DNA of 61,775 nt, counting the filler. It is 3 parts of 3 records of this genome, joined end to end, with 100 filler letters (N's around TTAATTAATTAA, not from the genome) between each part and the next. Parts side by side here need not be neighbours in the genome. Positions count along the whole stretch, not along the records: positions 1 to 31,470 come from DRR378314_370; 2 more parts are not named here. One strand, 5' to 3'. The first letter of the stretch is position 1; every line of letters starts with the position of its first letter. This document shows positions 1,291-31,570 of the stretch, piece after piece. Below the pieces are notes generated by a model. It saw only the letters and a list, made by a program, of their open reading frames with translations. It was not told the origin of the DNA and did no database searches. The position numbers and the translations under genes were made by a program.

Positions 1291-1313
1291 CAGGTCGAAA
1301 TCGTCCAGATTAA
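1291..1313 (-). promoter_or_regulatory. Candidate operator 1 (imperfect palindrome with GGACG-WWT-N4-CC core) between the divergent ICS and TetR genes
   Basis: Minus strand reads TTAATCTGGACGATTTCGACCTG; it shares its core with the sites at 26509-26532 and 27023-27050. Confidence 0.45.
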
Positions 1314-1414
1314 CGGTGGATAAGGCGTTGAAATCCGCCAAGGGCGTATGGGTTCGAGTTGCCCTCCGGCGGCCTTGCACCGAGAATGTTCTAACGACCG
1401 AAGGGAAGAGCTAG

Positions 1415-2107
1415 ATGACGCATCCATTACCTCGCACTACAGTGAAGCAATCAGCACCGGATGCTGCCGTTTCGGAGGTGCCCATGCGCAAGAACCGGGG
1501 CGGGCGCCCGACCAAGGCTGCCACCGAGGCGCTGGAACGACGCATCCTCGAGGTTGCGGCGGAACTCTTTGCCAGCCAGGGCTTTGCCGCCACAACAATG
1601 GAGCAGGTTGCAGCCGAGTGTCAGTCGGGCAAGGATACGATCTATCGCCGCTACAATTCCAAGGCAGCGCTGTTTGCAGCGTTGACCACAAAGGCGCGGC
1701 GCGAGGTGCTGCCGGAACTCGAAGAGATCGCCGCGAGCGAGGGACAGACCCTTGCGGTGCTGCGCCAATTTGCACGCGCGATGTTGTCCGTGAACCTGCG
1801 CCCCGAGCTGCTGGCGCTCAATCGGGTTGCCCTGGCAGAAGCGGTGGATATGGGTGAGGCTGCCCGAACGCCAAGCACCGGTGACCCGATCATGACCCTG
1901 TTTGCCTCGCTTGTGCAGGCAGCGCAGATCGAGGGCAGACTCTGTGATCACGACCCGCTGGACTTGGCCGAGCAGCTGCTCTATGCGACTTCGATCAAGC
2001 CGTTGCTGTCTTCGATGATGGGCAGTCCCGAATTTTCTGAACCGGCGGCCCAGGACGCCTATTTCGACCGGGCTTGGAGCCTGTTTCTGCGCGGCGCGCA
2101 GCGCTGA
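1415..2107 (+). CDS. TetR/AcrR family transcriptional regulator
   Basis: GGRP...RILEVAAELFASQGFAATTMEQVAAECQSGKDTIYRRY is a TetR N-terminal HTH. The true start may be 1484 (MRKNRGG). Confidence 0.9.
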   Translation: MTHPLPRTTVKQSAPDAAVSEVPMRKNRGGRPTKAATEALERRILEVAAELFASQGFAATTMEQVAAECQSGKDTIYRRYNSKAALFAALTTKARREVLPELEEIAASEGQTLAVLRQFARAMLSVNLRPELLALNRVALAEAVDMGEAARTPSTGDPIMTLFASLVQAAQIEGRLCDHDPLDLAEQLLYATSIKPLLSSMMGSPEFSEPAAQDAYFDRAWSLFLRGAQR

Positions 2108-2213
2108 CACCTGAACGCACTGCGTTTCTATCGTTGTCGTCATGTCATGTGGTCCACAAATTTTGAAACACGGTGTTGCATTTAGCGCTGCGACGGACCC
2201 GGCATTCAGGATT

Positions 2214-2248
2214 GGTGCGGGCTCTTCCCCCTAGGAACAGCCCGCACC
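2214..2248. terminator. Stem-loop between the convergent tetR and NRPS genes (possible bidirectional terminator)
   Basis: GGTGCGGGCT-c-TTCC...GGAA-c-AGCCCGCACC inverted repeat; no clear U-tract. Confidence 0.5.
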
Positions 2249-2281
2249 CTCGCCAACCTGTGCAGCCTTTGGCGGAGCGGA

Positions 2282-15022: not shown

Positions 15023-15028
15023 ATCAAG

Positions 15029-16402
15029 TCACCAAAGCAGTTGATTGGCATCGGAAATTGTGGCCTCCAGGTGGTCCAGAAGGCGCGTAATACTGTCAGC
15101 GTCGAACCGCTGGCGGGCATAGGTAGCCTCCAACGCAAACCGCGTTTCCGGCCCGCGGCCATGGGTAAAAACTTCCAGCCCCAGCGGCACCAGCGGGAAT
15201 TGCGTGGCGCCGCTATGCAATCGTCGCCACCGGCAGTGGCTGCCCGGCAGCCGCGGCGCCTCGGTGCCGCTGGGAATGAACACCACCAGACTGTCAAATA
15301 AGCGCGGCGGAGCGGTGGGATCGTCACAGCCGAGCAGGGCGCAAAGCTGTTCGTAGGGCAGATCCGCATGTGAAAAGGCAAGGTCGATCTCTTCCCCCAC
15401 CGCCAGTAGCAACTCTGCGGAGGATAGCGCCGACCCGGTTTGCTGCAGCCGCAAGCACAGCGGAATGTGGTTGGCGAAATTTCCGATCAGGTACTGGCTC
15501 CCCGGCATCGTTCGGTCAAGCACGGTCGTCCCGACGCAGACCTCGCTCTGCGGTGCTTGGCTCCAAAGGGCGCGGGCCCAACAGGCCATAAACGCCTTGA
15601 ACGGTGTCACCCGATGCGCCGTCGCGAGTTGCATCAATGCAGCACTGCTGGCCAGCACACGATCCACCCGCCCTGCGGCCTCTTGGGGCGCGCTGGCGTC
15701 GCCGGTGAAAGCCGCTAGGCTCAGCGCGGGTCGCTGGGAGGAAAACCGCGACTGCCAGAAGGCCTCAGTCCGCACCACCCGCGCCGGATCTGCCTGCGGC
15801 AGCTCGGCCAGGTCTCCATATTGGCAAAGCAGATCCGGCAGCACGCCCCTGCTACAGAGCAGTTCTAGCTCGCGACAGATCAGATCGAATGTCGCCCCAT
15901 CCCAGAGAATGTGATGCACCACCAGCGTCAGGATCACCTGCTGCGGTCCAGTTCTGCAGATCAACACCCGCAGCGGTGCGTCCCGGCTGAGGTCAAAGTG
16001 CTGTGCCATCAGCTTTTGCGCCTGGCTACGGGACTCCTCGGCCCCAGCGACGATCTGGTGACAGGAAAACGGCAGCTCTTTATGGATTACCTGCCTGGGA
16101 GGCGTGCCCGAAGCGGAGCCTTCATAGGTGGTGCGCAGGATCTCGTGCCGGGCTACCAAAGCCCTCAGCCCGGTGATCAGCGCCGCCTCCTGGACCGCGC
16201 CCTCGAAAGTGAACTCCAGCCCAAGCACATTGCTCAGGCTGCCCGGATGGACCTGCTCGTATCTCCAAGTGTGCAGCTGCTCCGGTGACAGCGCCGCCTG
16301 GCCCTGATCGGCGCGCCGTGGCACCACCCGCGCCAGCTCTGCGCCGGGTCGTCCCGATGCCTGCAATCGCCGCCGCAGAACAGCCTGACGTACGCCCCTC
16401 AT
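15029..16402 (-). CDS. Stand-alone NRPS condensation domain protein
   Basis: LVARHEILRT, PLRVL, VHHILWDG, IGNFAN, DLPYE; no A or T domain. ATG at 16402 overlaps the upstream stop (ATGA). Confidence 0.88.
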   Translation of the reverse strand: MRGVRQAVLRRRLQASGRPGAELARVVPRRADQGQAALSPEQLHTWRYEQVHPGSLSNVLGLEFTFEGAVQEAALITGLRALVARHEILRTTYEGSASGTPPRQVIHKELPFSCHQIVAGAEESRSQAQKLMAQHFDLSRDAPLRVLICRTGPQQVILTLVVHHILWDGATFDLICRELELLCSRGVLPDLLCQYGDLAELPQADPARVVRTEAFWQSRFSSQRPALSLAAFTGDASAPQEAAGRVDRVLASSAALMQLATAHRVTPFKAFMACWARALWSQAPQSEVCVGTTVLDRTMPGSQYLIGNFANHIPLCLRLQQTGSALSSAELLLAVGEEIDLAFSHADLPYEQLCALLGCDDPTAPPRLFDSLVVFIPSGTEAPRLPGSHCRWRRLHSGATQFPLVPLGLEVFTHGRGPETRFALEATYARQRFDADSITRLLDHLEATISDANQLLW

Positions 16403-18828
16403 GCCACCGGCTCCGACGCAGCGTCTTCGGCTTCTTCCGCCGCCAGCAGCGCTGCAACTTCTTCGTCGGTCATATTGCGGATCTCCAGCGTCAGTGACGC
16501 AATCTCGCAAATGCGAGCGCCATCATCGCCGCGGCGCAGCACGTCGGCCAGCTCGGCGACGGTGGGGTAGCGAAACAGCGCCCGCAAAGTGATTGCGTCA
16601 CTGTCCAAGTCGTCTTGCAGCCGTGCCACCACCCGAGTTGCCAGCAGGCTGTCGCCTCCAAGCGCGATAAACTCTTCGTTGACGCCGATCGATGCCAGTC
16701 CCAGCACCTCTGCCCAGGTTTCGGCCATGAGCTGCTCCAGATCATCGCGCGGAGCCACCAGATCCTGGTTGCCGCATTGCTCGGCAATCCCATGCGCTAG
16801 TGCAGTGTCGTCGATCCGGCCATCCTCTGTACGGGGCAGCGCCTCTGTCACCACGACGCGATGTGGCAGCAGATGGGCAGGCGTGCGGCGGGCCAGTTCC
16901 GCCCGCAGTGTCTTGCCGGTGACATCCTCAGTCCCAGGCTCCAGCACCACCGCAGCGGCAAATCCCAATTCTGCCTCAGCAATAACGGCGACCTCCGCAA
17001 CCCGAGGATCAGTGCGTAGCGCTGCCGCAACATCCTGCGGCCAGACCTTGACGCCATGCCGGATCCCGAAGTCCCCGTCGCTGCCCAGAACTTCCACCGC
17101 GCCGGTCTCATCGGCCCGTGCCCATTGCGGTGCAGTGGAACTCTCTGGCCCGTCCAAGTGGCCGACCACAAACGCGGGACAGTCATTGCCATTCCGATCC
17201 AGGATCCGCACCAATTGTCCGTCCAGCCATCGCTCCGGCGCCCCGGTTTCCAGTGGGCGCAACGGTAGCTGCCAGCTTCCGGGGTGGTCGATCACCGCCG
17301 TAAGCCATTGTTCAAACTGGGCAAACATATCGTCAGCCACATTATTGGCCAGCGCATCCTCGCGAATGTCCCAATTGACCAGCAGGCCGCCTTCGAACTC
17401 GGTCACCTGCGCGTCCAGCAACACCTGCGGCCCTTGCGAAATCACCCAGACCGGGCGCCCAACGCAGGCGCTGACCTCCGGCGCAAACAACTCGCCCAGC
17501 CCCAGCGCACTGGTAAAGACCACCGGTGCCAGCACCGTTTCGCCGCGCACCCGGCCCAGCTCGCGCAGCACGTCAAGCCCACTAAAGGCGGCATGGGCCG
17601 CGTCCTCATGCATCTGTGCCTGCATCTCCCGGACTCGCCCGGCAAAGCTCTGCTCCGTGCGCAGGTCCACCTCTAGCATCACCGAGCTGGAAAAATCCCC
17701 GGCGATCCGGTCAATTTCCGGGTGCAAGGCAGGCCGGTCGAACATCGGCACATTCAACAGGAAATGATCGGTAGCGCTCCAGCGCCCGACCACTTCTGCC
17801 AGCACCGCCGCAACGGTCATAGCCGGCGTGGCGCCCTGCGCGCGTGCCACCTGCGCAAGTGCCGCTTTACGCGCGGGCGTCAGCCACATGTGCCGCCGCG
17901 CCACGCGCGGCGCGGCCGCCGCCTCCGGGCTCAGCAAACGCTCGGGCAGCACCGGCGATCCCGGCAGGCTGCCCATCCGCTCGGCCCAGGCTGCAGCGGC
18001 GTCCTTTGCCTTGGCCGCCGTCTGCGCCGCAACGCCGATCAGATAATCCCGATAGCTCAACTCCAGCGTCGGCAGCTCCCGGCCTGGTTCCTGGTACAGC
18101 GCCACCAGATCCGCCATCAACAGGCGATAGCTCACCGCATCGGCCGCAATCATGTCCATGTCGAGATGCAGCCGCGTCGCGCCCTCTGGCAGAAGGCTCA
18201 AGGCAGCTGTAAACACCGCGCCGCTTTCCACATCAAGTGACTGATGCGAATACCCTTCGCGCAGTGCATCAAGTCGCGCCTGACGCTCGGCCTCGGGCAC
18301 TTCGCGCAGATCATGCACCACAAAGGGCACCGGCAAATCGTTCGCCACCTCCTGATGACCATCTGCCGTCACCCTGCTGCGCAGCGTCTCATGACGCTGC
18401 ATCAGCCGGGCAAAGGCAGTGCGTAACCGCTCTGGCTCCAGTGCGCAACCGCCGTCGTGATCGAATTCCACATACAGATGCGCGGCCACCCCGCCGAGCC
18501 GCTGACCGGGGCTGCGCCCGACCCAATAGGCATGTTGCATCACCCCCAGCGGGGTTGGCACGTCCGCCGGTGCCGGGACCAGGCGAACCGCTTCGGCCGC
18601 CGCCGCCGACCCCAGCAGGCGGTTCCAAGCCATCAGCGTCGGCTCCAACGCGAGGCTGGCGAAATCCACTTCGATCCGGTCCCGCCTGAGCCGGTTTACC
18701 AGCCGCAGCAGACCGATGGAATCAAGCCCCGCCTCAAACAGGTTTTCCTTCGGATCGAGTTTCTCCGCCTCGCTGCCAAGAAAGTCATGGAGCGCGGCGC
18801 GCAACAGAGTGTCGTACGATTGGGTCAT
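16399..18828 (-). CDS. NRPS aryl carrier - heterocyclization (Cy) - truncated A remnant - PCP (MbtB-like)
   Basis: ArCP GLDSI; Cy MQHAYWVGR, DMIAADAVS (DxxxxD), PVVFTS, SQGPQVLLD; only the C-terminal part of an A domain remains (LPRTEDGRID); PCP GGDSLLA. Confidence 0.9.
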   Translation of the reverse strand: MTQSYDTLLRAALHDFLGSEAEKLDPKENLFEAGLDSIGLLRLVNRLRRDRIEVDFASLALEPTLMAWNRLLGSAAAAEAVRLVPAPADVPTPLGVMQHAYWVGRSPGQRLGGVAAHLYVEFDHDGGCALEPERLRTAFARLMQRHETLRSRVTADGHQEVANDLPVPFVVHDLREVPEAERQARLDALREGYSHQSLDVESGAVFTAALSLLPEGATRLHLDMDMIAADAVSYRLLMADLVALYQEPGRELPTLELSYRDYLIGVAAQTAAKAKDAAAAWAERMGSLPGSPVLPERLLSPEAAAAPRVARRHMWLTPARKAALAQVARAQGATPAMTVAAVLAEVVGRWSATDHFLLNVPMFDRPALHPEIDRIAGDFSSSVMLEVDLRTEQSFAGRVREMQAQMHEDAAHAAFSGLDVLRELGRVRGETVLAPVVFTSALGLGELFAPEVSACVGRPVWVISQGPQVLLDAQVTEFEGGLLVNWDIREDALANNVADDMFAQFEQWLTAVIDHPGSWQLPLRPLETGAPERWLDGQLVRILDRNGNDCPAFVVGHLDGPESSTAPQWARADETGAVEVLGSDGDFGIRHGVKVWPQDVAAALRTDPRVAEVAVIAEAELGFAAAVVLEPGTEDVTGKTLRAELARRTPAHLLPHRVVVTEALPRTEDGRIDDTALAHGIAEQCGNQDLVAPRDDLEQLMAETWAEVLGLASIGVNEEFIALGGDSLLATRVVARLQDDLDSDAITLRALFRYPTVAELADVLRRGDDGARICEIASLTLEIRNMTDEEVAALLAAEEAEDAASEPVA

Positions 18829-20456
18829 TGGGTGTTTCCCTCTTTTTTGGGAGCCGGGGCGACAGGAGACGGGTACTGTGCCAAACGGCGGCGCAGCAGG
18901 GTCTCGCGGCTGGGGGCAGATTGTTTTGTGGAACGATCGCTTCGCGGAGCAGGCGTTGGCAGCGCTGTCCGGTCGAGCTTGTTGTTGGGGGTCAGCGGCA
19001 GCTTCGGCAGAGCAACGATATGGGCCGGAATCAGATGCTTCGGCAGCCGTGCCGCGAGATGATCGCGCAGCGCGCGCCGGTCCAGATCAGCCTGAGTGGT
19101 GACCACATAGGCTACCAGGCATTGCTCTCCCGCCGCCCCATCCGGATCGGGTTTCACGGCCACCGCGCTGGCGCTGACATCTGCATGCGCTGCCAAGGCG
19201 GCCTCGACTTCACCCGGTTCGATGCGAAAACCACGTAGCGACAACTGCGCATCCGCCCGCCCGATAAAATCCAACCCCGTGGCGCTGCACCGCACCAGAT
19301 CGCCACTGCGGTACAACCGCCCGCCTCCACCCGCAGGATCCGCGACAAAGCGACTGGCGGTCAGCCCCGCGCGGCGCAGGTAGCCACGCGAAACCTGAGC
19401 ACCGCCCAGATACAATTCCCCAACCGCATCCATCACCACCGGTTGCAGGTCGGCACCCAGAACATGCCCGTGAAACCCGGGCAACGGGTGGCCGATCGGG
19501 CTTTCGCCTGCCGCGCCGTGCTGATCCGGCTTCATGTCATAGGCTGTCACATGCACTGTGGTCTCAGTGATGCCGTACATATTGACCATCCGGGGCCACA
19601 TCGGGCGACGAACAAACCAGTCTCGCAGCCGCGCCGGTTCCAGGGCCTCGCCGCCAAAGATCACCAGCCTGAGGTCCGCCAAAGTGTGTTTGCCCTGCGC
19701 ATCGGCCTTGGCCAGCGCCGCAAAGGCGGTTGGGGTCTGGTTCAGAACCGTCACCGCTTCGCGTTCCATCAACTTCAGCAGATCCTCCGCCGACCAGGTG
19801 GCTTCCTGCGGTACGATCACCGCCTGCCCGCCGGTCAGCAACGGCGCCCAGATCTCCCAGACCGAAAAGTCAAACGCATAGGAATGAAACACCGTCCAGA
19901 CATCCTGCGCAGAGATGTCAAACTGCGGCACCGTCGCATCTAGCAGCCCCAGAAAGGCGCGATGGGACACCACGACCCCCTTGGGCTGCCCGGTGGAACC
20001 GGAGGTATAGATCACGTAGGCGGCACTATCGGGATGAATAACCGGCGCGACGGGTGAGGCATCATCCGTGCGGCTGACGCTGTCCGGCAGCAGGATCCGT
20101 GCCGCATCCTCGTGCCCCTGCGGCAGCTCAACCCCTGCAGTGGTAACGATACTGACAGGCGCGGCGTCCACGATTAGGTGAGCCAGCCGCGCCGCCGGGT
20201 AGGCGGGGTCCAGCGGCAGATAAGCTGCCCCGGTCTTTAGAACCGCCAAGAGTGCCACCACCAGATCGGCCGAGCGTGGCAGCGCCACTCCCACCAGGGT
20301 CTCCGGCCGCGCCCCTTGCGTCAGCAATCTTTGCGCCAGCTGCTCGGACCGCGCATCCAACTCCGCATATGTCAGCCGCTCGGCCCCGTCGCTGACTGCA
20401 CAGGACTCTGGCCGTCTGGCCACTTGCTGGCGGAATCTCTCCACAAGAGTTGTCAC
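18825..20456 (-). CDS. Stand-alone adenylation domain, predicted L-threonine
   Basis: YTSGSTGQPKG, FDFSVWE, VLNQTP, IFGGE, NMYGITETTVH, NNK give the code DFWNIGMVHK (canonical Thr). GTG start follows GGAGG. Confidence 0.9.
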   Translation of the reverse strand: MTTLVERFRQQVARRPESCAVSDGAERLTYAELDARSEQLAQRLLTQGARPETLVGVALPRSADLVVALLAVLKTGAAYLPLDPAYPAARLAHLIVDAAPVSIVTTAGVELPQGHEDAARILLPDSVSRTDDASPVAPVIHPDSAAYVIYTSGSTGQPKGVVVSHRAFLGLLDATVPQFDISAQDVWTVFHSYAFDFSVWEIWAPLLTGGQAVIVPQEATWSAEDLLKLMEREAVTVLNQTPTAFAALAKADAQGKHTLADLRLVIFGGEALEPARLRDWFVRRPMWPRMVNMYGITETTVHVTAYDMKPDQHGAAGESPIGHPLPGFHGHVLGADLQPVVMDAVGELYLGGAQVSRGYLRRAGLTASRFVADPAGGGGRLYRSGDLVRCSATGLDFIGRADAQLSLRGFRIEPGEVEAALAAHADVSASAVAVKPDPDGAAGEQCLVAYVVTTQADLDRRALRDHLAARLPKHLIPAHIVALPKLPLTPNNKLDRTALPTPAPRSDRSTKQSAPSRETLLRRRLAQYPSPVAPAPKKEGNTQ

Positions 20457-20618: not shown

Positions 20619-22268
20619 TCAGGCCGGTTGCAGCGCGGCAATCTGTTCCAGCAATGCCTTGCGGTCGATCTTGCCAAAGCGGGTCAGAGGAATGCGCGCC
20701 ACCACCTCCAGCCTGTCCGGCAGCTTGTAAGCCGCCACTCCACGCGTGTTGAGATAGCTGCGCAGCACCCGCAAACTCGGCGCTTCGGAGGTGGCCGCGC
20801 AAATCACGACGCAGGTCGCCTGCCCAAGAGCCTCATCCGGCAGGCCGATCACCGCTACATCGCGTAACGCCGGGTGGTCTATCAGATGATCCTCAAGTTC
20901 CCCGGCCGAGAATTTCTCGCCGCCGCGATTGATCTGATCGCCGGCTCTTCCCTCGACCACCAGATGGCCAGACGGCAGGCGCCGCACCAGATCACCGCTG
21001 CGGAAAAAGCCATCAGCGGTGAAGGCCCGGGCGTTGACCTCGGCAGAGGCAGCATATTGACGGATGGTATAGGGGCCGCGGGCCCAGAGCTCTCCGACAG
21101 AACCCTCAGGCACTTCCTGCCCTGCCTCGTCAACGATGCGGATCTCGTCATCCGGCGAGGCGGGCCGACCCTGGCAAATCTCCACAAGCTCGGCCGGATC
21201 GGTCTGCCGGGTGAAATTCAAAAGCCCCTCTGCCATGCCAAAGACCTGCTGCACCCGGGCCCCCAGCAGCGCCGGAATCCGCGCCGCCACCGCTGGCGCC
21301 AGCTTCGCACCGCCCACCTGCACCACTTCTAGGCTCGACAGGTCGCGGTCATCAAATTCCCGCGCCTCCAACCATAGTGCAATCAGCGTCGGCACCGCCG
21401 CCGTAATCGTCACCCGATGTTCGGCAATCAACCCAAACACTGCGCCTGGGCTTGGATCGCGGGCCAGCACCACGGTGCCACCGGCGCTCAATGTGCCCAG
21501 GATACCGGGACAGGCCAACGGGAAATTGTGCTCCGCGGCGAGACAGGCCAGATAGACGGTCTTGGTCGAAAGACCGCAAACCTCCGCCGCCACCCGCGCA
21601 TTATAAGAATAATCATCGTGACTGCGCGGAATCAGCTTCGGAAGACCGCTGGTGCCACCCGAATGCAGATAAAGCGCCACCGTTCCCGTGTCGATCAGGC
21701 CAAACTCTGCGGTCTCCCCGGCACCGGACATAAACCTTTCGTAATCAACAGCCCCCTCCAGGTCACCGGTCTCGCCGACCACCAGGATCTTTTCGAGCGC
21801 AGGCAACTCTGCACGTGCCTGCCGCGCGAGATCGCGGAAATCGAAACTGGCGATCCGATCAGGAATGGCATAAGCCACCGCCCCGGACCCCCGTGCCAGA
21901 TGCAGAACCTCACGGGCACGATGCGTCGGCAGCACCATCACGGGCACCACCCCGGCCCGGATGCAGCCGAAAAACAGCGTCATCAGCTCCAGACAGTTGG
22001 GCAGTTGCAGGATTATCCGGTCCCCGGCCTCCAACCCCCAATTCAACAGTGCTGCCGCGGCACGTTCAGCTTCAGCGTCCAGTTCGGCATAGCTTAGCCG
22101 CCGCCCCTCGCTGTCGATCAGTGCGCAGGCTTCCGGGGCCTCGCGGGCAAAACGGCGCAGCGGTTCGGATAGGTCTTCACCGCGCCAATAGCCCTTTTCG
22201 CGATAGCGGGCGGCAAAGTCTTCGGGCCAGAGCGGCCGCGAAAGCGCCGGTGTCTGCTGCGGGTCCAT
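20619..22268 (-). CDS. Salicylate-AMP ligase (MbtA/YbtE/PchD-like aryl acid adenylation enzyme)
   Basis: SGGTSGLPKLIPR, HNFPLACPG (Cys at the DhbE-S240 position indicates salicylate type), QQVFGMAEGLLN, GPYTI, INRGGEK. ATG at 22268 follows AAAGGA. Confidence 0.9.
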   Translation of the reverse strand: MDPQQTPALSRPLWPEDFAARYREKGYWRGEDLSEPLRRFAREAPEACALIDSEGRRLSYAELDAEAERAAAALLNWGLEAGDRIILQLPNCLELMTLFFGCIRAGVVPVMVLPTHRAREVLHLARGSGAVAYAIPDRIASFDFRDLARQARAELPALEKILVVGETGDLEGAVDYERFMSGAGETAEFGLIDTGTVALYLHSGGTSGLPKLIPRSHDDYSYNARVAAEVCGLSTKTVYLACLAAEHNFPLACPGILGTLSAGGTVVLARDPSPGAVFGLIAEHRVTITAAVPTLIALWLEAREFDDRDLSSLEVVQVGGAKLAPAVAARIPALLGARVQQVFGMAEGLLNFTRQTDPAELVEICQGRPASPDDEIRIVDEAGQEVPEGSVGELWARGPYTIRQYAASAEVNARAFTADGFFRSGDLVRRLPSGHLVVEGRAGDQINRGGEKFSAGELEDHLIDHPALRDVAVIGLPDEALGQATCVVICAATSEAPSLRVLRSYLNTRGVAAYKLPDRLEVVARIPLTRFGKIDRKALLEQIAALQPA

Positions 22269-22269
22269 A

Positions 22270-23130
22270 TCAGGTCCTTTCCTGAAGAGAGGCTTCGGTA
22301 CAAGTTGCAAGAAATGACAACAGCTGGGCGTTCACCGCCTTCGGCTGTTCGAGATAGCCATAGTGTCCGGCATCGGCGATTCCGCGATATATGGCACCGG
22401 GGATCACTTCGGCCACCTCACGGCTCAGGCGCGGGGTTATGGCGGCATCATCGGCAAAGGTCAGCGCCAGATAGGGCCGCGTTACCCCGCGATAGGCATC
22501 GCGACGGTCCCCGAGGTTTGCCGACACCATAAGCTGCGCCCGATGCCCCGGACTGAACGGACCTTCATCAAGCGACAACATGTCGATCCAGTCCTGCGCC
22601 CGCTGGTCATCCGCCAGCGTCGCCGGCGACAGATACTGAAGCGCATTCACCGCTGCCCGATAGGAGATTGGCGCCGGTTCACGCCTATCCGCCATCGCGA
22701 TCTCTCCCTTGATCATGGCCCGCTGGACCGGGTCAAGCCGCGCGTGCGCCGCCAGCGCGATCACGCAACGGACCAGATCAGGCCGCGTCAACGCCACCTC
22801 GGTAACGATGCGCGCGCCCAGTGACGTGCCGATCAGCGCCACCGGCTCGGTACCGAGATGGCGGATCATGGCCACTACGTCGCCGGCCATATCGTCGATG
22901 GTAAATCCCTGCACATCGGTATCGCTCGGAGCGATACCGCGATTGGTCAGGGTCACCACCCGGTAGCCCGCCGCCGTCAGCGCCGGAACCTGATGGAAAT
23001 TCCAGACGCGGCCCGGGCTGCCGGTCCCCATCACCATCACCACCGTCTCGCCAAGAGCAGGGCCGGTCGACGGGAAGTCCTCATAGGCCAGTTGCAGCCC
23101 GTCGTGGCTGAAATACTGCACCGCCATCAT
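22270..23130 (-). CDS. Alpha/beta-hydrolase (siderophore-cluster associated; possible thioesterase or editing enzyme)
   Basis: GTSLG nucleophile elbow, GTGSPGRVW..HQVPAL, DAGHYGYLEQP; translationally coupled to its neighbours. Confidence 0.85.
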   Translation of the reverse strand: MMAVQYFSHDGLQLAYEDFPSTGPALGETVVMVMGTGSPGRVWNFHQVPALTAAGYRVVTLTNRGIAPSDTDVQGFTIDDMAGDVVAMIRHLGTEPVALIGTSLGARIVTEVALTRPDLVRCVIALAAHARLDPVQRAMIKGEIAMADRREPAPISYRAAVNALQYLSPATLADDQRAQDWIDMLSLDEGPFSPGHRAQLMVSANLGDRRDAYRGVTRPYLALTFADDAAITPRLSREVAEVIPGAIYRGIADAGHYGYLEQPKAVNAQLLSFLATCTEASLQERT

Positions 23131-24527
23131 CCCGCCTCCGCCGCGGCGCCCTGCGGCACCAGATGCAGACTAGCACTGCGCAGTTTCTCGTTGGTTTCCT
23201 CCAGCTCCCGCACCGCGTCTGAAGTGGCGATCAACCCTGCCCCCGCCCGCAGCCAGGTCTGATGGCCGCAGGCAAAGACAGAGCGGATCACCAGGGCTGC
23301 GTCCAGCGCGCCGCCCAGGGTTCCGGTCAGCACCGCCCCGCTGTAAAGCCCGCGCGCAGAGACCTCTCGCGCTTGGATCTCCTCCACCGCACGGCGCTTG
23401 GGAATACCGGAAGTGGTGACCGGCGGGAACAAGCTGGCAAAGGCATCCCAGGCGCTCTTGCCTGGCGCCAGCTGCCCTTCGACCGTGGACGCAATATGCT
23501 GCACGCTGCCGCGCTCCACCACCTGCAGGAAATCACGGATCGCGACGCTCTCAGGCCTGCAGACCCGGGTTATCTCGGTCTGCGCGAGTTCCACCGAAAG
23601 CGTGTGTTCGTAGATTTCCTTCGGATCGGATAACAGTTCCGCCCGGAGCGCTGCACGATCCTGCCGGGTCGCGCCAATCGCCCGCGTCCCAGCCAGCGGC
23701 TGGCTGCGCACCCGGCCCGCCTCTGTGACCTCGACGATCGCACCGGGGCTGACACCGGCAGCGGTTTGCCCCGCCATATGCAATAGAAACGACCGCGCCG
23801 GGGTATTTGCCTGCCGCAGCGCCCGGTAAGATTCAACCATATCCAATGGCACCGTCACCGGTACCGGCCGCGACAGGATCAGCTTGCGAAAGCCGCTGCC
23901 GTCGATCTCACGGATCGCCTCGGCGGCGGCGACTTCATAGGCTTTCGCCCCTTGCGTCAGATCCACTGCCGCACGAGCCTGAGGCACCGCCGCCATGGGC
24001 CCCGCCAGCAAACGCCGCCAGATTTCCGACAGCGTCGCATCTGCCACTTGCAGATCGGCCGTGCCAGATCGCAGTATGACCTCGTGCGCCGGACGCATCA
24101 GATGCAGCAGCGGTGCCTGCGCGTCGGCCACCGGCTCCCCCTGCAACAATGCGGCCAGCTCAAACGCCGCCCAGCCGTAAAACCGTGCCTCCGGCGCACC
24201 GCCCAATTGCGCCAGCGCCTGCTGCACCGCCGCCAGGGGATTTTGCCCAAGCGACAAATGCTGCCGCCCCGCGGCCGCGTCCAGCGTGATCCCGCTTGCA
24301 GTCAGCGTCAGGCTCGCAGCCGATCCGGCGGCAAAATGAACCGCGTCCCCGATCTCATAGAGCATATAGTCCGCGCGCGCGCCCAAATACCGCCGGACCT
24401 CGTCCCGCGCCAGGGTCGCAGCCAGCGCTGCTGCGGCTGTGACCGGATCTCCAAGCACGGGCGCCTGACACTGCATAGCGGCTTTCACAGGCTCTGACTG
24501 CATCAGCATCACATCTCTATCCTTCAT
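23127..24527 (-). CDS. Salicylate synthase homolog (MbtI/Irp9-like) with SPE to SPG substitution
   Basis: KLILSR, NTPARSFL, QPLAGTR, DPKEIYEH, RGSVQH, VTTSGIPK, RGLYSG, LRAGAG, RELEETNEK. The start could be 24527, 24509 or 24503. Confidence 0.88.
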   Translation of the reverse strand: MKDRDVMLMQSEPVKAAMQCQAPVLGDPVTAAAALAATLARDEVRRYLGARADYMLYEIGDAVHFAAGSAASLTLTASGITLDAAAGRQHLSLGQNPLAAVQQALAQLGGAPEARFYGWAAFELAALLQGEPVADAQAPLLHLMRPAHEVILRSGTADLQVADATLSEIWRRLLAGPMAAVPQARAAVDLTQGAKAYEVAAAEAIREIDGSGFRKLILSRPVPVTVPLDMVESYRALRQANTPARSFLLHMAGQTAAGVSPGAIVEVTEAGRVRSQPLAGTRAIGATRQDRAALRAELLSDPKEIYEHTLSVELAQTEITRVCRPESVAIRDFLQVVERGSVQHIASTVEGQLAPGKSAWDAFASLFPPVTTSGIPKRRAVEEIQAREVSARGLYSGAVLTGTLGGALDAALVIRSVFACGHQTWLRAGAGLIATSDAVRELEETNEKLRSASLHLVPQGAAAEAG

Positions 24528-24546: not shown

Positions 24547-24774
24547 TCATGCGCCCGCACGCATTTGCTCGCGCAACGTCCTTGGACGCATGTCGGTCCA
24601 GGTCTCGTCGATCCAATCAAGCACCGCCTGCCGCGGCGCCCCATCCGGCCCGCCAAAGGCGATCCGCCACCCCTCGGGCACCGCATGGAACACCGGCCAA
24701 AGAGAATATTGCTCTTCATCGTTGACAAGAGCGAAGAACGCCGCGTCCTCGGCATCAAACGGGTTGCTGCTCAT
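24547..24774 (-). CDS. mbtH: MbtH-like protein
   Basis: NPFD, LVNDEEQYSLWP, VPEGW, WTDMRP, with all three conserved Trp residues. Confidence 0.97.
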   Translation of the reverse strand: MSSNPFDAEDAAFFALVNDEEQYSLWPVFHAVPEGWRIAFGGPDGAPRQAVLDWIDETWTDMRPRTLREQMRAGA

Positions 24775-24810: not shown

Positions 24811-26166
24811 TCAGGCTGGCACTGGGCTGGCCTGATCCGCCAACGCGCTGCGCAGGATATCGCTGGCCCGGACGGCAACATTCGACAACAGCGAGGAAGT
24901 CATCCCATGGCTATGTTCAACACCACCGTTGAGGTAGATCCGGCGTTCCAGACCCGGCAATTCCAGGCTGTAATCCCGCGCGACGCGGGGCAGATCACCG
25001 TCATAAGCTGCTGACACGTCCAATGTGGCACCCAGCATTTCGCGCAGGTCGAAGGGGGCAAACCCGGTGGCATAGATCACCGCATCGACCTCCAGATCGA
25101 CCTGATGGCGATCGCCCAGATCGCGCAGCGTTACCGATACCCCATCCGTGCCCACCTGCTCTCGGGCCACTTCGGTCACCCGATGGACGTAAAGCCTGCG
25201 CCGCCCGGTGATCTTCTCGTCATACTCGCGCCGATACAGCGCCTCGATCAATTCGCCGTCCACGGCAGAATAGTTGGTCGCCAGATGGGTCTCGCGCAAC
25301 CGGGTCTTCAAGGGCTGCGGCGCGGTATAAAAGTCATCCACCGAAGCAGGATCGAAAATCCGATTGGCATAGGGAGTATCATCCGAAGGCGAATAGCCAA
25401 ACCGCCGGAATGACGCATGCACCTCGGCCTCCGGGTAACTGTCGTGCAGGTATGCGGCAACCTCCGCCGCACTTTGCCCCGATCCAACCACCAGAAACCT
25501 CCCCTTTGGCCGCGACGGCAGCGCTGTGAGCTGGTCCAACAGCTGATGATTATGGAACACCCGCGGGCCCGGACTCACGCCCCGCGGCAACACCGGCCGA
25601 ATGCCCGCTCCCACCACCAGCCGCTGCGCGCGGATGGTATCTTGGGTCACCAGCGTGCCCGTCCGGTGTTCGGTTGTGATCTCGAAACCGCCGCCGCGCC
25701 ACTCGATTCGCATCGCGCGCGTCCCGTAGGAAACCGGCAGCTGCACCTGTGCCGCGGCCCAGTTCAGATAGTCATGAAACTCCCGCCGGGTGGGAAAGAA
25801 GGTCTTCATATTGATGAAATCCGCCAATCGGTTCCGGGCGTGCAAATAGCTGAGGAACGAATAGCGGCTGGTCGGACTACGCAGCGACACCAGATCCTTG
25901 AGGAAACTGATCTGCATGGTGGTCTCCGGCAGCAACATGCCGTCATGCCAGCCGAACTGCGGCTTTGCCTCGACAAAGGCAGCGCTGGGAACCGCACGAT
26001 CCGGGCTTGCCGCGCGCGCTTCCTCCAGCGCGATCGCCAGCGCCAGGTTGGACGGGCCGAAACCGATCCCCAGAAGGTCCACCTCCTGTCCCGCGGCCCT
26101 CTGCGCCCGAACCGCAGAGCCTGCATGGGTACTATGCGGCTGGTCGATCACTTTTTCTGTCAGCAT
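24811..26166 (-). CDS. L-ornithine/lysine N-monooxygenase (PvdA/IucD family)
   Basis: GIGFGPSNL (FAD), WHDGML, MQISFLKDL, VGSGQSAAE (NADPH), TNYS, ATGF, SSLLS. ATG at 26166 follows AGGA. Confidence 0.93.
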   Translation of the reverse strand: MLTEKVIDQPHSTHAGSAVRAQRAAGQEVDLLGIGFGPSNLALAIALEEARAASPDRAVPSAAFVEAKPQFGWHDGMLLPETTMQISFLKDLVSLRSPTSRYSFLSYLHARNRLADFINMKTFFPTRREFHDYLNWAAAQVQLPVSYGTRAMRIEWRGGGFEITTEHRTGTLVTQDTIRAQRLVVGAGIRPVLPRGVSPGPRVFHNHQLLDQLTALPSRPKGRFLVVGSGQSAAEVAAYLHDSYPEAEVHASFRRFGYSPSDDTPYANRIFDPASVDDFYTAPQPLKTRLRETHLATNYSAVDGELIEALYRREYDEKITGRRRLYVHRVTEVAREQVGTDGVSVTLRDLGDRHQVDLEVDAVIYATGFAPFDLREMLGATLDVSAAYDGDLPRVARDYSLELPGLERRIYLNGGVEHSHGMTSSLLSNVAVRASDILRSALADQASPVPA

Positions 26167-27088: not shown

Positions 27089-29227
27089 ATGTTCAGAAAG
27101 GCGAGTGTGTTGACCGGGTCGATCCTAGCCGTCACCACACAGTTCTGTCCTTTTTGGGGGAAAGCGGCGGCGCAGGAGCTAGTCATCGAACTTGATCCGA
27201 TTACGGTACAGCGCGATGTAGCGGATACCTCCTCGTCATACGCCCTTCCGGAAATGCGATCAGCCACTAAGACAGACACGCCAGTGGTGGAAACACCCCA
27301 AGCCTTGACTGTGCTGACGCGCAAACAGTTTGACGACCAGAACACCCAGACCGTCGGGCAAGCGTTGCGCTATACCGCCGGGGTTTTGTCGGAGGTGGAT
27401 TCCTCCACTCGCTATGACAGTGTGTACCTGCGCGGCTTTGGCGGCTTTGGGACCTCCTCATCCTTTGTGTCATCACTGGACGGGCTGCCGCTACCGCGAG
27501 GGCAGGCCTTTGCGCAATCTTCAGTAGATCCGTTTCTGCTGGATCGGGTGGACGTGTTGAAAGGGCCTTCGGCGCTGCTTTATGGTCAAAGCAGCCCGGG
27601 TGGATTGGTAAATATGGTCAGCCGTGCACCAGACGGCAGTTCCCGAGGTGAAGCGCGGCTGGAGTTTGGCAGCCACGACAGGGTTATGGTCGGTGGCGCA
27701 CAACAGGGGGTGCTGAACGGGTCCGGCACGCTGCAATACAGCATCATTGGCCTGGCTCGGAATGCGGGCAGCCGTTACGACGATGTCGAGGAAACGCGGT
27801 TTTCGGTTGCGCCGACGCTGGTATGGACACCAACAGAGCAAACCCGCTATACATTTGGGGTCTATTTCCAGCGTGACCCGGACGGGGGGTATTTCAACTC
27901 CACCTTTCCGCGCAGCTTGGCCCCTGCAGTTGCCGGGTATCTGGACCGTGACCTGAATATGGGCGATCCCGGATTTGACCGTTTTGACCGTACCCAATGG
28001 GGCATTTCGGCGGGCGTTGAGCATGCCCTGAACACCAACCTCACCCTGCGTTCGAAAATGCGTTACAGCGGCGTTGATGTCGATATGGACGCAATTCAGC
28101 ATGCCGGTTTCATCAGCCCCTCCGGGGTATTGAGCCGTATGGCGGTACAATCGCGCGAAGATGTCCGCGGCTTTGCATGGGATACGAACCTTGAATACGA
28201 GGTCAGTACCGGCGCTGTAGAGCATCGGATACTGTTGGGGGCGGACGTCAGCCGCAATGATAGCGATTGGCAGTACAACTTTGCAATGGCGCCCGGGCTG
28301 GAGGTGACCAACCCCAGCTACTCCAGGGTGACGGGTCCCTTCATGGCACTGACCGACAACCATCAGGTCACCAACCAAAAAGGGATTTACCTGAGCGATC
28401 AGATGGCTATCGGCAAATTCCGCACGGTTCTGGGTTTGCGGCATGACTGGATCGAAACCGAAAACGAGAACCGGCTTGCGAATTCGACCAGCGAGCAGAG
28501 TTCCGATCAGACCTCCTATCGGGCGGCGGTTCTTTATCAGTTCGATAATGGCGTTGCGCCCTATGTCAGCTATGCGACCTCGTTCCAGCCGGAAATCGGT
28601 GTCAGTGAAAGCGGCAGCGCCTTTGTGCCAACTGAATCCGAACAATATGAGATCGGGGTGAAGTATCGGCCCGAGAGCTTTGATGCGCTGTTCACGATGG
28701 CGGCCTTCGACCTGACCCAGACCAACGTCAAGACGCCCGGGTCCGCGCCCAACACCTTCATCCAGACTGGCGAGATCCGCTCGCGCGGGCTGGAGTTCGA
28801 GATGCGCGGACAGGTGACCCAGCGGTTGGAGCTTATCGCTGCCTTCACGTTGCTGGATACGGAAGTCACCAAATCCACGACCAGCAGCATTATCGGCAAC
28901 AGGCCGCAGGCGGTGCCTGAGCATTTTGGCTCGATCTGGGCGAACTATGCTTTTGACAACGGCCTGGAACTGGGCGGCGGGGTGCGTTTTGTCGGATCCA
29001 GCTATGGAGACGATGCCAATACGCTTAAGGCGGACAGCTATGTTCTGGCAGATCTGGCAATGCGCTACGATCTGAGTCGACTGGGTGGTTTCTTCCAAGG
29101 CACAGAGGCGACGCTGAATGTGCGGAACCTGCTTGATGAAACCTATTATTCCAGCTGCAGCTTCAACGTGTATTGCCAGTACGGCGAGGGCCGCAGCATC
29201 ACCGCCGGGTTGCGCAAGACATGGTAA
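27089..29227 (+). CDS. TonB-dependent siderophore receptor (FhuA-like)
   Basis: Signal peptide, LDPITV TonB box, ATKTDTP..ETPQ, ALRYTAG, RVDVLKGPSALLYG..SPGG, QYEIGVKY, RSRGLEFE, NLLDETY, C-terminal W. Confidence 0.96.
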   Translation: MFRKASVLTGSILAVTTQFCPFWGKAAAQELVIELDPITVQRDVADTSSSYALPEMRSATKTDTPVVETPQALTVLTRKQFDDQNTQTVGQALRYTAGVLSEVDSSTRYDSVYLRGFGGFGTSSSFVSSLDGLPLPRGQAFAQSSVDPFLLDRVDVLKGPSALLYGQSSPGGLVNMVSRAPDGSSRGEARLEFGSHDRVMVGGAQQGVLNGSGTLQYSIIGLARNAGSRYDDVEETRFSVAPTLVWTPTEQTRYTFGVYFQRDPDGGYFNSTFPRSLAPAVAGYLDRDLNMGDPGFDRFDRTQWGISAGVEHALNTNLTLRSKMRYSGVDVDMDAIQHAGFISPSGVLSRMAVQSREDVRGFAWDTNLEYEVSTGAVEHRILLGADVSRNDSDWQYNFAMAPGLEVTNPSYSRVTGPFMALTDNHQVTNQKGIYLSDQMAIGKFRTVLGLRHDWIETENENRLANSTSEQSSDQTSYRAAVLYQFDNGVAPYVSYATSFQPEIGVSESGSAFVPTESEQYEIGVKYRPESFDALFTMAAFDLTQTNVKTPGSAPNTFIQTGEIRSRGLEFEMRGQVTQRLELIAAFTLLDTEVTKSTTSSIIGNRPQAVPEHFGSIWANYAFDNGLELGGGVRFVGSSYGDDANTLKADSYVLADLAMRYDLSRLGGFFQGTEATLNVRNLLDETYYSSCSFNVYCQYGEGRSITAGLRKTW

Positions 29228-30297
29228 GCCGCCGCAACCTGCTGACACTGGGCGCCGCGTTTTTGTCGCTCCCGAGCTTGGGCCGAGCGAGTGACCATGC
29301 GGTCGTGGACGTGCTGGGGCGGGAGGTTACACTTTCGGCCCAGCCGCAGCGGATTGTCCTGCTGGATGGCAGCGATCTCTTTACCGTGGCGGCGCTCCTG
29401 CCGGATCCGGCGGACCGTGTGGTCGGCTGGGCGAGCGCAGCCCGGCTTGACCTTGGCGCAAAAGCCGGGCTGCTCGGCGCGGACTTTCCCGAGGTCGGGC
29501 GTATTTCGCCAGAAACAGTGTCGGTCGAAGCGATCCTCGCTCTGAACCCGGATCTGGTGGTGTCGAGCGCCTATATGCTGCCGCCAGAGGGCAGCGTGCT
29601 TGCAGAGCATTTTGCACAGGCAGGTATCCCGGTTGCCTGGTCCAGCGGCCATGACCGCGCATTTGGCCCCCAAGAGAAACTGCGCCGTGCAATGGGGTTC
29701 TGGGGGGCTGTACTGGGACAGGAAGCCCGCGCCGCGGAGCTTGCAGCCTGGGGTGCAGCGCACTTTGCCCGCCTTGCGACCCGGTCGCTGCCGCAGCAGC
29801 TGCCACGGGTCTATATGGAAGTGATGACCACCTATGACAGCTGCTGCTGGGCCGCGGGGCAATCCTTCTGGTCAGATCTGTTTGCCCTCGCAGGGGGCGA
29901 CCTGATGACCGAGGCCGCAGGCTGGAGCCAGCAGTTAAGTGCCGAGGGGCTGCTCGCCCTCAATCCCGAAGTCTATATCGCCACGGGGGGCAATTTTGCC
30001 CCCGCCCGGCAACCAGGAATCGCCCCGGGGCTGGATACCGAGGCCGCGCGCGCTGGTCTGAAACAGGCGGCGGCGCGGCAGGGCCTCGTCCATACCGATG
30101 CGGTGCGTACGGGCCGGGTGCATGGCATCTGGTCGGGGTTGATTTCCTCACCGCTGCTGCTGGTGGTGCTAACCGAATGCCTGGCGCGCTGGCTGCACCC
30201 CGGACAAGCCGCCGACATAGATCCCGCCGCGACACTGGCCGAGCTGAACACCTATTTCCCAGCCCCTTTGCCGGGGCCGATGTGGGTGACGATTTAA
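29221..30297 (+). CDS. Iron-siderophore ABC transporter periplasmic binding protein with Tat signal
   Basis: MVSRRNLL Tat motif, DVLGREVTL..PQRIVL, SVEAILALNPDLV, CC motif, AVRTGRVHGIW; overlaps the receptor stop. Confidence 0.88.
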   Translation: MVSRRNLLTLGAAFLSLPSLGRASDHAVVDVLGREVTLSAQPQRIVLLDGSDLFTVAALLPDPADRVVGWASAARLDLGAKAGLLGADFPEVGRISPETVSVEAILALNPDLVVSSAYMLPPEGSVLAEHFAQAGIPVAWSSGHDRAFGPQEKLRRAMGFWGAVLGQEARAAELAAWGAAHFARLATRSLPQQLPRVYMEVMTTYDSCCWAAGQSFWSDLFALAGGDLMTEAAGWSQQLSAEGLLALNPEVYIATGGNFAPARQPGIAPGLDTEAARAGLKQAAARQGLVHTDAVRTGRVHGIWSGLISSPLLLVVLTECLARWLHPGQAADIDPAATLAELNTYFPAPLPGPMWVTI

Positions 30298-30318
30298 CCT
30301 GAACGCAAGAGGTGCAGG

Positions 30319-31416
30319 ATGTTTGAAACCCGGGCCAGGATTATGTTCCCAGATATCGACCGGTATTTTGCCACTATTGTGGATGCGATCAATGCCCATG
30401 GCTGGCCAGTGGTGCGGCAGGGCACACGCACCGCCTGGGCCGGAGCAGAACGCGAGGTGACGTTGCGGGCCAGCACCGATGAACTGGCAGTCAGCATCTG
30501 TTGCGAAGACCGGGCGGCGCTCAACGCGATGCGCTACTCGGTGACCAGCCTGATTGACTTCAACGCCCGCGCGGCGGCGCCGGTGATCACTTGGCGCGGA
30601 GACGAAGTCGGCGAGACATTGCCACCGGATTTGCGGCTGTTTGTCGTCAGCAGCACCGAAATGATCACTCCAAAAATGCGCCGCATCTGGTTTTCCGGCC
30701 CCGACGTAGCGCGCTATGACACGTTGGAGCATCTGCATGCGCGGCTGTTGTTCAAACGCGGGCGCGGGGTGCCAGAAGCTTGGCCGCATATGACCGATAC
30801 CGGCCGCATTCGCTGGCCCGGCGGGAAGGCGGAGCTCGACACGCGGGTCTATACTGTGCGCAAAGTGGATTCCGCCGCCGGACGGCTGGCGGTAGATTTT
30901 TTTCTGGGCGATCACAGCGGCCCGGCCACAACTTGGGCTCGGGAGGCCGCGCCGGGCGACGGTGTCGGATTTATCGGCCCGGCCGCGCATGGCCAAGTGC
31001 GGGCGCCTTTCCAGGTGTTTGTAGCGGATGAAACCGGCCTGCCGGGGGTGTTGCGCTGCATGGAGGCGCTGCCGCTGGAAACCCGCGGGGTTGCGCTGAT
31101 CGAAGTCGACGGTCCCGAAGACCGGCAGGAGGTGGCGACACCTGCCAGCATGGTGCTGCGTTGGCTCTACCGGAATGGCGCCGCACCGGGAACCACGCAG
31201 CTGCTGGAACAGGCCTTTGCCGAGATCGACTGGCCCGAAGATCCGACGACAGCGGGATTCTGGTGCGGAGCCGAGCGACAGACCTTTGTCCGCCTGTGGC
31301 GGGCAGTGCGGGCGCGCGGATTGCTCAACGGGCAGATCGTTGCTTTTGCCCATTGGCGCCGAGGGATGAGCGAGCCGGAGATTGCCGCGGCGGGCAGCAG
31401 CTCGGTCCGAAGCTGA
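30319..31416 (+). CDS. Siderophore-interacting protein (ViuB/SIP, FAD-binding ferric reductase) with an N-terminal extension
   Basis: ITPKMRRI, RVYTVR, GPATTWA..A.PGD, ADETGLP, WCGAE, HWRRG. Confidence 0.92.
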   Translation: MFETRARIMFPDIDRYFATIVDAINAHGWPVVRQGTRTAWAGAEREVTLRASTDELAVSICCEDRAALNAMRYSVTSLIDFNARAAAPVITWRGDEVGETLPPDLRLFVVSSTEMITPKMRRIWFSGPDVARYDTLEHLHARLLFKRGRGVPEAWPHMTDTGRIRWPGGKAELDTRVYTVRKVDSAAGRLAVDFFLGDHSGPATTWAREAAPGDGVGFIGPAAHGQVRAPFQVFVADETGLPGVLRCMEALPLETRGVALIEVDGPEDRQEVATPASMVLRWLYRNGAAPGTTQLLEQAFAEIDWPEDPTTAGFWCGAERQTFVRLWRAVRARGLLNGQIVAFAHWRRGMSEPEIAAAGSSSVRS

Positions 31417-31440: not shown

Positions 31441-31470
31441 GACTGTGTTGCACGGATCGTTTCATCAGCG
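31441..31470. repeat. Right copy of the perfect 30-bp inverted repeat bounding contig 1
   Basis: gactgtgttgcacggatcgtttcatcagcg is the reverse complement of 1-30; the contig ends here. Confidence 0.9.
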
Positions 31471-31570
31471 NNNNNNNNNNNNNNNNNNNNNNNNNNNNNN
31501 NNNNNNNNNNNNNNTTAATTAATTAANNNNNNNNNNNNNNNNNNNNNNNNNNNNNNNNNNNNNNNNNNNN
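31471..31570. other. Artificial contig spacer (N44-TTAATTAATTAA-N44)
   Basis: A six-frame-stop linker sits inside N runs; the identical structure occurs at 51696-51795. Confidence 0.97.

Follow-up and report, generated by a model that had tools for sequence, protein, structure and literature searches.

A salicylate-synthase-type protein without its general-acid glutamate and a separate isochorismate synthase in one siderophore cluster: a probable two-enzyme route to salicylate

The locus

The window, by which we mean the whole stretch of DNA analysed here (61,775 nucleotides, filler included, of which positions 1-31470 come from DRR378314_370), carries a siderophore gene cluster with two enzymes of the MST family. 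One is a salicylate-synthase-type protein (P0001) that lacks the general-acid glutamate (Glu) of its class, and the other is a separate isochorismate synthase (ICS) with an intact active site. A preliminary description of this DNA had proposed that the two divide the synthesis of salicylate between them, the ICS making isochorismate and P0001 acting as a lyase on it. This division of labour was supported by comparative tests (Glu loss as a family trait, its linkage with the ICS, the ligase code and selection), the activities themselves being predicted from sequence. The features on which the argument turns are as follows.

23127-24527, minus strand: salicylate-synthase-type MST protein P0001, 466 amino acids (open frame, profile, alignment and fold)
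23742-23744, minus strand: Gly262 codon GGT of P0001, at the position of MbtI E252 and Irp9 E240 (DNA reading and alignment)
23883-23885, minus strand: Lys215 codon AAG of P0001, the general-base Lys (MbtI K205), invariant in the family (DNA reading and alignment)
23415-23417, minus strand: Thr371 codon ACC of P0001, the salicylate-synthase Thr (MbtI T361; ICS have Ala), invariant in the family (alignment)
64-1242, minus strand: EntC/DhbC-type ICS, with K179, E234 and the Mg-binding Glu intact and Ala340 at the Thr position (profile and alignment)
20619-22268, minus strand: aryl-AMP ligase with salicylate-type specificity residues (PDB search, start codon checked)
22270-23130, minus strand: alpha/beta hydrolase, Rv0554/BpoC-like, between the synthase-like gene and the ligase

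Identification and active site of P0001

The minus strand of 23127-24527 is a stop-free frame encoding 466 amino acids of MbtI/Irp9 type. The translation scored 370.7 bits against the NCBIfam profile TIGR03494 (salicyl_syn), above the cut-off of 325.15. Besides a weak chance match to FhuF, the only Pfam match was PF00425 (Chorismate_bind), and CM_2 (PF01817) was absent; judged by its domains, P0001 may work like PchB, yet it is not a member of the PchB family.

P0001 was searched with phmmer against all PDB chains, and the nine best distinct sequences were all salicylate synthases (M. abscessus SaS, 248.5 bits; Irp9, 237.3 bits; MbtI, 235.7 bits). The alignments place GVSPGAIV of the window protein opposite GYSPELVT of MbtI and GFSPELVM of Irp9, and counting along the printed alignments equates Gly262 with MbtI E252 and Irp9 E240. 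P0001 therefore has Gly262 where salicylate synthases have their general-acid Glu. At the DNA level the site reads GCC GGT GTC AGC CCC GGT GCG ATC GTC GAG, the second GGT being 23742-23744, which is two changes away from GAA or GAG. According to the available portion of PMC8008425, this Glu protonates the leaving C4 hydroxyl and Lys205 activates water in MbtI.

P0001 retains K215 (MbtI K205), E304/E307, H344, T371 in VTTSGIPK, Y395, R415, E441/E444 and K448. The preliminary description had read a Gly in place of the Glu of SPE, with the Lys, Mg-binding Glu, His, Thr and terminal Lys all kept, and the alignments bear this reading out. An AlphaFold2 model built with 17 family sequences (mean predicted local distance difference test score, pLDDT, 86.9; predicted template modelling score, pTM, 0.87) has an intact MST fold, and its top Foldseek matches were the solved synthases M. 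abscessus SaS, MbtI and Irp9, with template modelling (TM) scores of 0.79-0.91. By profile, fold and context P0001 is a salicylate synthase, minus one defining catalytic feature.

Loss of the Glu as a family trait

The best 120 homologs of P0001 were taken from a collection of 5.8 billion proteins. The 24 closest among them (49-100% identity), with the names Rhizobium, Agrobacterium and Azospirillaceae represented, all lack Glu at column 262. For the family set, P0003 was dropped as a near-copy of the window protein and the three next relatives, which share the other fixed changes of the family, were added. The resulting 26-member family comprises 26 sequence clusters from alphaproteobacteria and metagenomes, with Gly in 15, Gln in five, Ser in two, Ala in one and Glu in three at column 262. 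Outside the family, the remaining salicylate synthases of this set (the window protein plus 119 listed homologs) have Glu there in 94/94 cases.

Gly is shared by the nearest homolog (80% identity) and by another 14 clusters, and all four Gly codons (GGT, GGC, GGG and GGA) are used in related loci, with CAG as the Gln codon. Gly262 is therefore not a read error, a point that the preliminary description had argued from the two changes separating GGT from any Glu codon.

Of 81 columns that are invariant or nearly so in the 94 synthases outside the family, 61 are also invariant within it, including K215, E304, E307, H344, T371, Y395, R415, E441, E444 and K448. Column 262 alone among the 81 has at least four states in the family, and three columns are replaced family-wide (V201A, G237L/M and F259V). 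The fixed changes near the lost Glu (F259V, T263A, V264I, G237L/M and V201A) are present in the Glu-bearing members too. Active-site positions of MbtI, mapped from the available portion of PMC8008425, are all unchanged in the family and none has turned acidic.

A quick maximum-likelihood tree built from 48 rows placed the family on one side of a branch (Shimodaira-Hasegawa-like approximate likelihood-ratio test, SH-aLRT, 98.4), and column 262 changed at least seven times within the family and never outside it. The ratio of non-synonymous to synonymous divergence (dN/dS) was 0.13-0.18 in the four Glu-less gene pairs with dS below 1. Judged by these ratios, the Glu-less genes are under purifying selection, the gene being maintained and only position 262 released. 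The acid position now appears to drift nearly neutrally among E, Q, G, A and S.

Two further surveys were made. Among 400 scored Rhizobiaceae genomes the gene was found in the seed genome only, and the survey yielded no Glu-bearing alphaproteobacterial controls. A metagenome scan gave 57 loci, with Glu at column 262 in 51/57, Gly in 3/57 and an unreadable site in 3/57; these last three were dropped, L153 and L154 looking frameshifted and L155 missing the site. No contig for the Glu-bearing family members was found among the 57 loci.

The isochorismate synthase and its linkage with Glu loss

The product of 64-1242 scored 264.5 bits against TIGR00543 (cut-off 224.75) and could be aligned from end to end with EntC (249.7 bits) and DhbC (229.8 bits). 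It keeps K179 and E234 (in GASPEL), in agreement with the intact ICS of the preliminary description, and Ala340 sits at the position of the salicylate-synthase Thr. A start at M47 is consistent with homologs of 392 amino acids. The Lys, the Glu, the Mg-binding Glu and the Ala at the Thr position were kept in 32/32 cluster ICS proteins examined.

A menaquinone-biosynthesis Gene Ontology term is placed by PGAP on the cluster ICS of two Rhizobium plasmids (L097, L098), and one record labels a cluster ICS 'isochorismate synthase MenF'. For an ICS within an alphaproteobacterial siderophore operon the menaquinone label is probably wrong.

Linkage was assessed in a genome scan with one genome per species, which gave 80 loci (L003-L082). 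Six lack the Glu, all of them from alphaproteobacteria, and 74 have it, almost all from actinobacteria. At four of the six Glu-less loci an ortholog of the window ICS (53-55% identity, >370 bits) lies in the operon, in the order synthase-like gene, hydrolase, ligase, ICS and adenylation (A) domain. At the remaining two, the contig that carries the synthase-like gene also carries the ICS (62% and 57% identity), at distances of 21 and 29 kb; there it stands at the cluster edge, beside TetR or divergent from the non-ribosomal peptide synthetase (NRPS) genes, as in the window. Eight plasmids matched, and two annotated Rhizobium plasmids among them, from R. etli and R. tumorigenes, carry the same operon with the ICS; PGAP names the two genes 'salicylate synthase' and 'isochorismate synthase' on both. 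The metagenome contig L099 has this operon as well, and two further Glu-less contigs (L101, L102) are too short to show the position of an ICS. Altogether an ICS was present in 10/10 informative Glu-less loci (six genome loci, two plasmids, L099 and the window); as the loci are related, the linkage counts do not stand for independent events.

None of the 74 Glu-bearing genome loci had such an ICS within ±10 kb, eight of them having weak MST matches only (50-80 bits), and none of three Glu-bearing plasmid loci (Pseudonocardia, Vibrio lentus and Ralstonia) had a second MST gene within about 20 kb. The co-occurrence of Glu loss and an extra ICS gene, for which the preliminary description had suggested a survey of homologs, was thus found. 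Pairwise identities of the synthase-like proteins and of their ICS partners were correlated (r = 0.94 over 11 pairs, with 0/5000 permutations as high). Such a correlation agrees with joint inheritance, but would be expected of any pair of linked genes.

Fate of isochorismate, the ligase and the hydrolase

A Pfam scan of the 24 large open reading frames (ORFs) of the window detected no CM_2/PchB, isochorismatase or short-chain dehydrogenase domain in the cassette, where the preliminary description had likewise seen no PchB-type lyase, isochorismatase or 2,3-dihydroxybenzoate (DHB) dehydrogenase. The gaps in the cassette hold only an MbtH gene (24547-24774, minus strand). The contig ends 63 bases past the ICS stop codon, and therefore no hidden downstream partner gene lies beyond the window.

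In five genomes with the cluster, CM_2 domains (one or two per genome) were on other contigs, and no isochorismatase-family gene was found in the clusters of these five relatives. DhbA exceeded its curated cut-off in only one of the five genomes (G005), on another contig, beside a second ICS and an isochorismatase. Compared with EntC and DhbC, the window ICS can be aligned in full and has all the catalytic residues, but the isochorismatase (EntB) and DhbA/EntA of the EntC-EntB-EntA pathway are absent beside it; its product is therefore not routed to 2,3-DHB.

The best PDB match of the aryl-AMP ligase was the salicylate-AMP ligase 5wm2 (606.7 bits). At the positions of DhbE 235, 236, 240, 329 and 337, which we take from the DhbE literature to be those that set specificity, the ligase has N, F, C, V and L. 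The Cys at DhbE Ser240 and the Leu at Val337 are as in the salicylate enzymes 5wm2, 5kei and 7tyb, whereas in the DHB enzymes 1md9 and 6e8o these positions hold Ser and Val.

These residues bear on the idea that P0001 makes a product other than salicylate, or uses another chorismate-derived substrate whose leaving group needs no acid. The fixed changes flanking the lost Glu, shared by the Glu-bearing members, hint at a remodelled pocket. The adjoining ligase, on the other hand, is of salicylate type in its residues, the Thr and all mapped first-shell residues of P0001 are those of salicylate synthases, and the Pfam scan showed no tailoring enzyme for another aryl acid. We consider a different product quite improbable.

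The closest solved relative of the hydrolase at 22270-23130 is M. tuberculosis Rv0554/BpoC (184 bits). An Rv0554-like hydrolase adjoins the aryl-AMP ligase in 19/80 genome loci, comprising 6/6 Glu-less and 13/74 Glu-bearing ones.

This neighbour could carry a scheme in which P0001 is dead, serving as a scaffold or regulator, and salicylate arises from isochorismate through the hydrolase or spontaneously. The gene stands next to the synthase and the ligase at every Glu-less genome locus, and Rv0554 was once tested as a MenH-type, pyruvate-eliminating enzyme; in the available portion of that study it had no activity on the MenH substrate (PMC3097144). The 13 Glu-bearing loci with the hydrolase also untie it from the Glu-less state. 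An invariant set of Mg-binding and substrate-binding residues, with the Thr, and a dN/dS of 0.13-0.18 would be unexpected for a dead site, and we judge this scheme very improbable.

Cluster layout and assembly

The remaining features of the cluster are listed below.

1-31470, no strand: assembly contig with the whole cluster (contig-joint reading)
1415-2107, plus strand: TetR-family regulator, divergent from the ICS, convergent with the last NRPS gene and cluster-adjacent in relatives
2282-20456, minus strand: NRPS assembly line overall (Pfam scan)
2282-9361, minus strand: NRPS of condensation (C), C, A, thiolation (T) and reductase domains, C-C-A-T-reductase (Pfam scan)
9358-10830, minus strand: Orn/Lys/Arg-type decarboxylase (Pfam scan)
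10820-15022, minus strand: NRPS C-A-T (Pfam scan)
15029-16510, minus strand: free-standing C protein (Pfam scan)
16399-18828, minus strand: NRPS C/T protein (Pfam scan)
18825-20456, minus strand: NRPS A (Pfam scan)
24547-24774, minus strand: MbtH-like NRPS accessory protein (ORF translation; the equivalent position is annotated MbtH in the Rhizobium plasmids)
24811-26166, minus strand: SidA/IucD-type N-monooxygenase, first gene of the operon
27089-31416, plus strand: uptake genes for a TonB-dependent receptor, a periplasmic binding protein and a siderophore-interacting reductase (Pfam scan)

Read from its head on the minus strand, the operon runs N-monooxygenase, MbtH, synthase-like gene, hydrolase and ligase, followed by five NRPS genes and the decarboxylase down to 2282. 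The ORF at 24547-24774 carries what we take to be the MbtH motif. The best match of the N-monooxygenase, which was below threshold, was histamine N-monooxygenase. The gene set, with its decarboxylase, SidA-type N-monooxygenase, free C protein and terminal reductase, suggests the type of product, which would be a salicylate-capped siderophore ending in an N-hydroxylated diamine. No described product was found for this siderophore cluster.

The window consists of at least three contigs placed end to end, with artificial N/TTAATTAATTAA linkers at 31471-31570 and 51697-51795. Since the contigs were joined artificially, genes to the right of 31570 are not true neighbours of the cluster. A 5'-truncated RecQ gene (31656-33209) was considered as the mark of an island insertion and rejected, being an assembly joint. 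The truncated MoxR-type ATPase gene at 51146-51688 is likewise cut by a contig joint and not by biology. The nearest genome compared (G001) is 99% identical only from 31571 onward and does not have the cluster; neither the synthase-like gene nor the ICS was found there, only TrpE.

The cluster contig ends in exact reverse complements (1-30 and 31441-31470), as would happen if both its ends reached into the same repeat in opposite orientations. This pattern suggests that inverted copies of one repeat, perhaps a pair of insertion sequences, flank the 31.5-kb cluster.

Part of the synthase-like gene (share 0.31) is contained in two seawater RNA-library runs of one study. Contigs from these runs match the window at about 97% identity, part from it at position 34 and show even coverage of 1-20000, intergenic DNA included, so that transcription is indistinguishable from DNA carry-over.

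A two-enzyme route to salicylate and its known counterparts

It is probable that the ICS makes isochorismate and that the MST-fold protein P0001 acts on it as a Mg-dependent isochorismate-pyruvate lyase. In the first step the ICS, with its Lys base and Glu acid intact and Ala in place of the lyase Thr, would convert chorismate to isochorismate. P0001, being without the Glu, would be unable to protonate the leaving C4 hydroxyl and would have no isomerase step. With its Mg site, binding residues and Thr it would bind free isochorismate and eliminate pyruvate to give salicylate, which the neighbouring ligase would adenylate and load onto the NRPS. A possible benefit is that the Glu-less enzyme could not return isochorismate to chorismate. 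P0001 would thus have lost the isomerase step and retained the lyase step, and the work of a single bifunctional enzyme is probably now shared between two on the way to salicylate. That a separate ICS is always there argues, at the level of gene content, against P0001 converting chorismate to salicylate alone.

MbtI, Irp9 and Mab-SaS belong to the same profile family as P0001 and share with it the predicted fold, the Lys, Mg-binding Glu, His, Thr, Tyr, Arg and terminal Lys, and the setting in a salicylate-capped NRPS siderophore cluster beside a salicyl-AMP ligase. P0001 differs from them by Gly for the acid Glu, by the separate ICS and by a predicted role in the second half-reaction only. The logic is that of PchA with PchB (pyochelin) and of PmsC with PmsB (pseudomonine), in which a free-standing ICS feeds a separate lyase for an NRPS siderophore. 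PchB, however, has the small AroQ chorismate-mutase fold (PF01817), and PchB-type lyases are not known to need a metal, whereas the lyase proposed here is a 466-residue protein of MST fold with a complete Mg site. PchA is a synthase-like ICS that keeps the isomerase step, is not known to carry out the lyase step and has Ala at the Thr position; the P0001 family, which keeps the Thr and is without the isomerase acid, would be its mirror image.

Available portions of a 2026 genome-mining paper (PMC12971057) and of a 2021 review (PMC8150894) list only two bacterial routes to salicylate, ICS plus a PchB-type lyase or one bifunctional synthase. No account of a Glu-less synthase together with an ICS came up in our literature search, though it covered subscription-journal enzymology thinly and an older report is possible. 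The current annotation as a 'salicylate synthase' with a menaquinone-type ICS probably misstates both genes.

Evidence weighed against the two-enzyme route

Several observations weigh against this division of labour. The general-base Lys, K215, is invariant in 26/26 family members. In the accepted mechanism this Lys is needed only for the attack of water, a pure lyase does not obviously need it, and its invariance would be compatible with chorismate still being the starting substrate; alternatively, the Lys might serve just to hold isochorismate by its C2 hydroxyl. Two acidic residues, D209 and E383, are also new in the family. The window ICS forms a transcription unit of its own that diverges from the TetR gene at the end of the cluster contig, and no upstream motif of 10 or more bases is shared there between the ICS and operon promoters. 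An earlier quick tree of 69 rows, with distant ICS as outgroup, left the family as a polytomy. Finally, three family clusters keep the Glu and two of these lineages also carry the ICS, so an ICS alone is no marker of a crippled synthase.

The invariant Lys, the new acidic residues and the coexistence of Glu-bearing members with the ICS, whose role may then be independent of the Glu state, all speak for P0001 as a still complete salicylate synthase. Its proton would come from water, from D209/E383 or from the substrate, and the ICS would only boost flux. We hold this to be unlikely. The Glu is present in 94/94 synthases outside the family and in all 32 partner ICS, within the family no one residue regularly stands in for it (G, A, S and Q all occur), and no mapped MbtI active-site position has become acidic. 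Glu-to-Gln and Glu-to-Ala variants of MST enzymes lose the isomerase step.

The separate transcription unit of the window ICS would also suit an arrangement in which the ICS works for a different pathway (DHB or quinone) and the synthase-like gene is decaying as a relic, as would the true DHB operon that G005 possesses in addition. In Rhizobium and Agrobacterium, however, the ICS is inside the siderophore operon, four of the five genomes have no above-cut-off DhbA, none of the clusters has an isochorismatase, and the synthase-like gene is under purifying selection. We regard this arrangement as extremely improbable. As to the pairing of ICS and synthase in the preliminary description, both lie in the same cluster, but in the window they do not share an operon.

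Order of events

The Glu-bearing members of the family bear on the history of the two-enzyme route. In Brucellaceae bacterium D45D, which is Glu-bearing, the synthase (MGU3401174.1) and the ICS (MGU3401177.1) are on one contig of 32,764 bp, three accession numbers apart, a spacing that agrees with the operon order. The Glu-bearing P0026 and the ICS P0150 each come from just one contig, 41,027 bp long and with the same sources in both cases, and presumably share it. The presence of the ICS in Glu-bearing family members would place its recruitment first and the loss, or free variation, of the Glu afterwards.

On this distribution, the ICS appears to belong to the cluster family as a whole, and its arrival did not serve to repair a synthase already broken. 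The ancestral cluster, its synthase still complete, would have gained an ICS, which would have made the first half-reaction of the synthase redundant; after that the acid position would have drifted (E, Q, G, A or S) or switched back and forth between E and Q. The history would then be one of the ICS first and the Glu dispensable later. The preliminary description had explained the otherwise redundant ICS by the degenerate synthase. The comparative tests support this explanation, with the correction that Glu-bearing members have the ICS too and the ICS came first. On balance, we lean slightly towards the view that a synthase lineage became a dedicated Mg-dependent isochorismate-pyruvate lyase of MST fold that depends on the cluster-encoded ICS.

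Glu-less relatives outside the family

A wider profile search covered 1.84 billion representatives, and the 150 best matches were aligned with the window protein (151 rows). At the Glu column 136 rows have Glu, four belong to this family, three are gapped and eight others are without Glu. These eight (P0323, P0352, P0353, P0358, P0361, P0365, P0367 and P0390) have Q, G, S, K, G, A, G and A, respectively. All keep the Lys, and the Thr is kept in seven, with Ser in P0367. One of them, a Streptomyces protein with Gln, passes the TIGR03494 cut-off; five form one divergent group below it (G, S, G, A and A; 241-308 bits), and the remaining two have one Lys and one Gly. Given these eight further representatives, the same unbundling may have occurred elsewhere.

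A salicylate-synthase domain, mostly C-terminal, was also seen in long proteins of 760-1670 amino acids, which are fusions (P0247, P0248, P0253, P0254, P0257, P0282, P0287, P0293, P0306, P0322 and P0332).

Significance

If the division of labour is true, it would be a third genetic route to bacterial salicylate, and nature would have shown the lyase half-reaction to be independent of both the general-acid Glu and the isomerase step. The family would be a natural experiment separating the two half-reactions of a much-studied enzyme, and would show how a bifunctional enzyme unbundles after a helper gene arrives. Enzymologists would have in it a ready-made lyase-only MST scaffold. The family makes it testable whether pyruvate elimination by salicylate synthases needs an acid/base pair at all.

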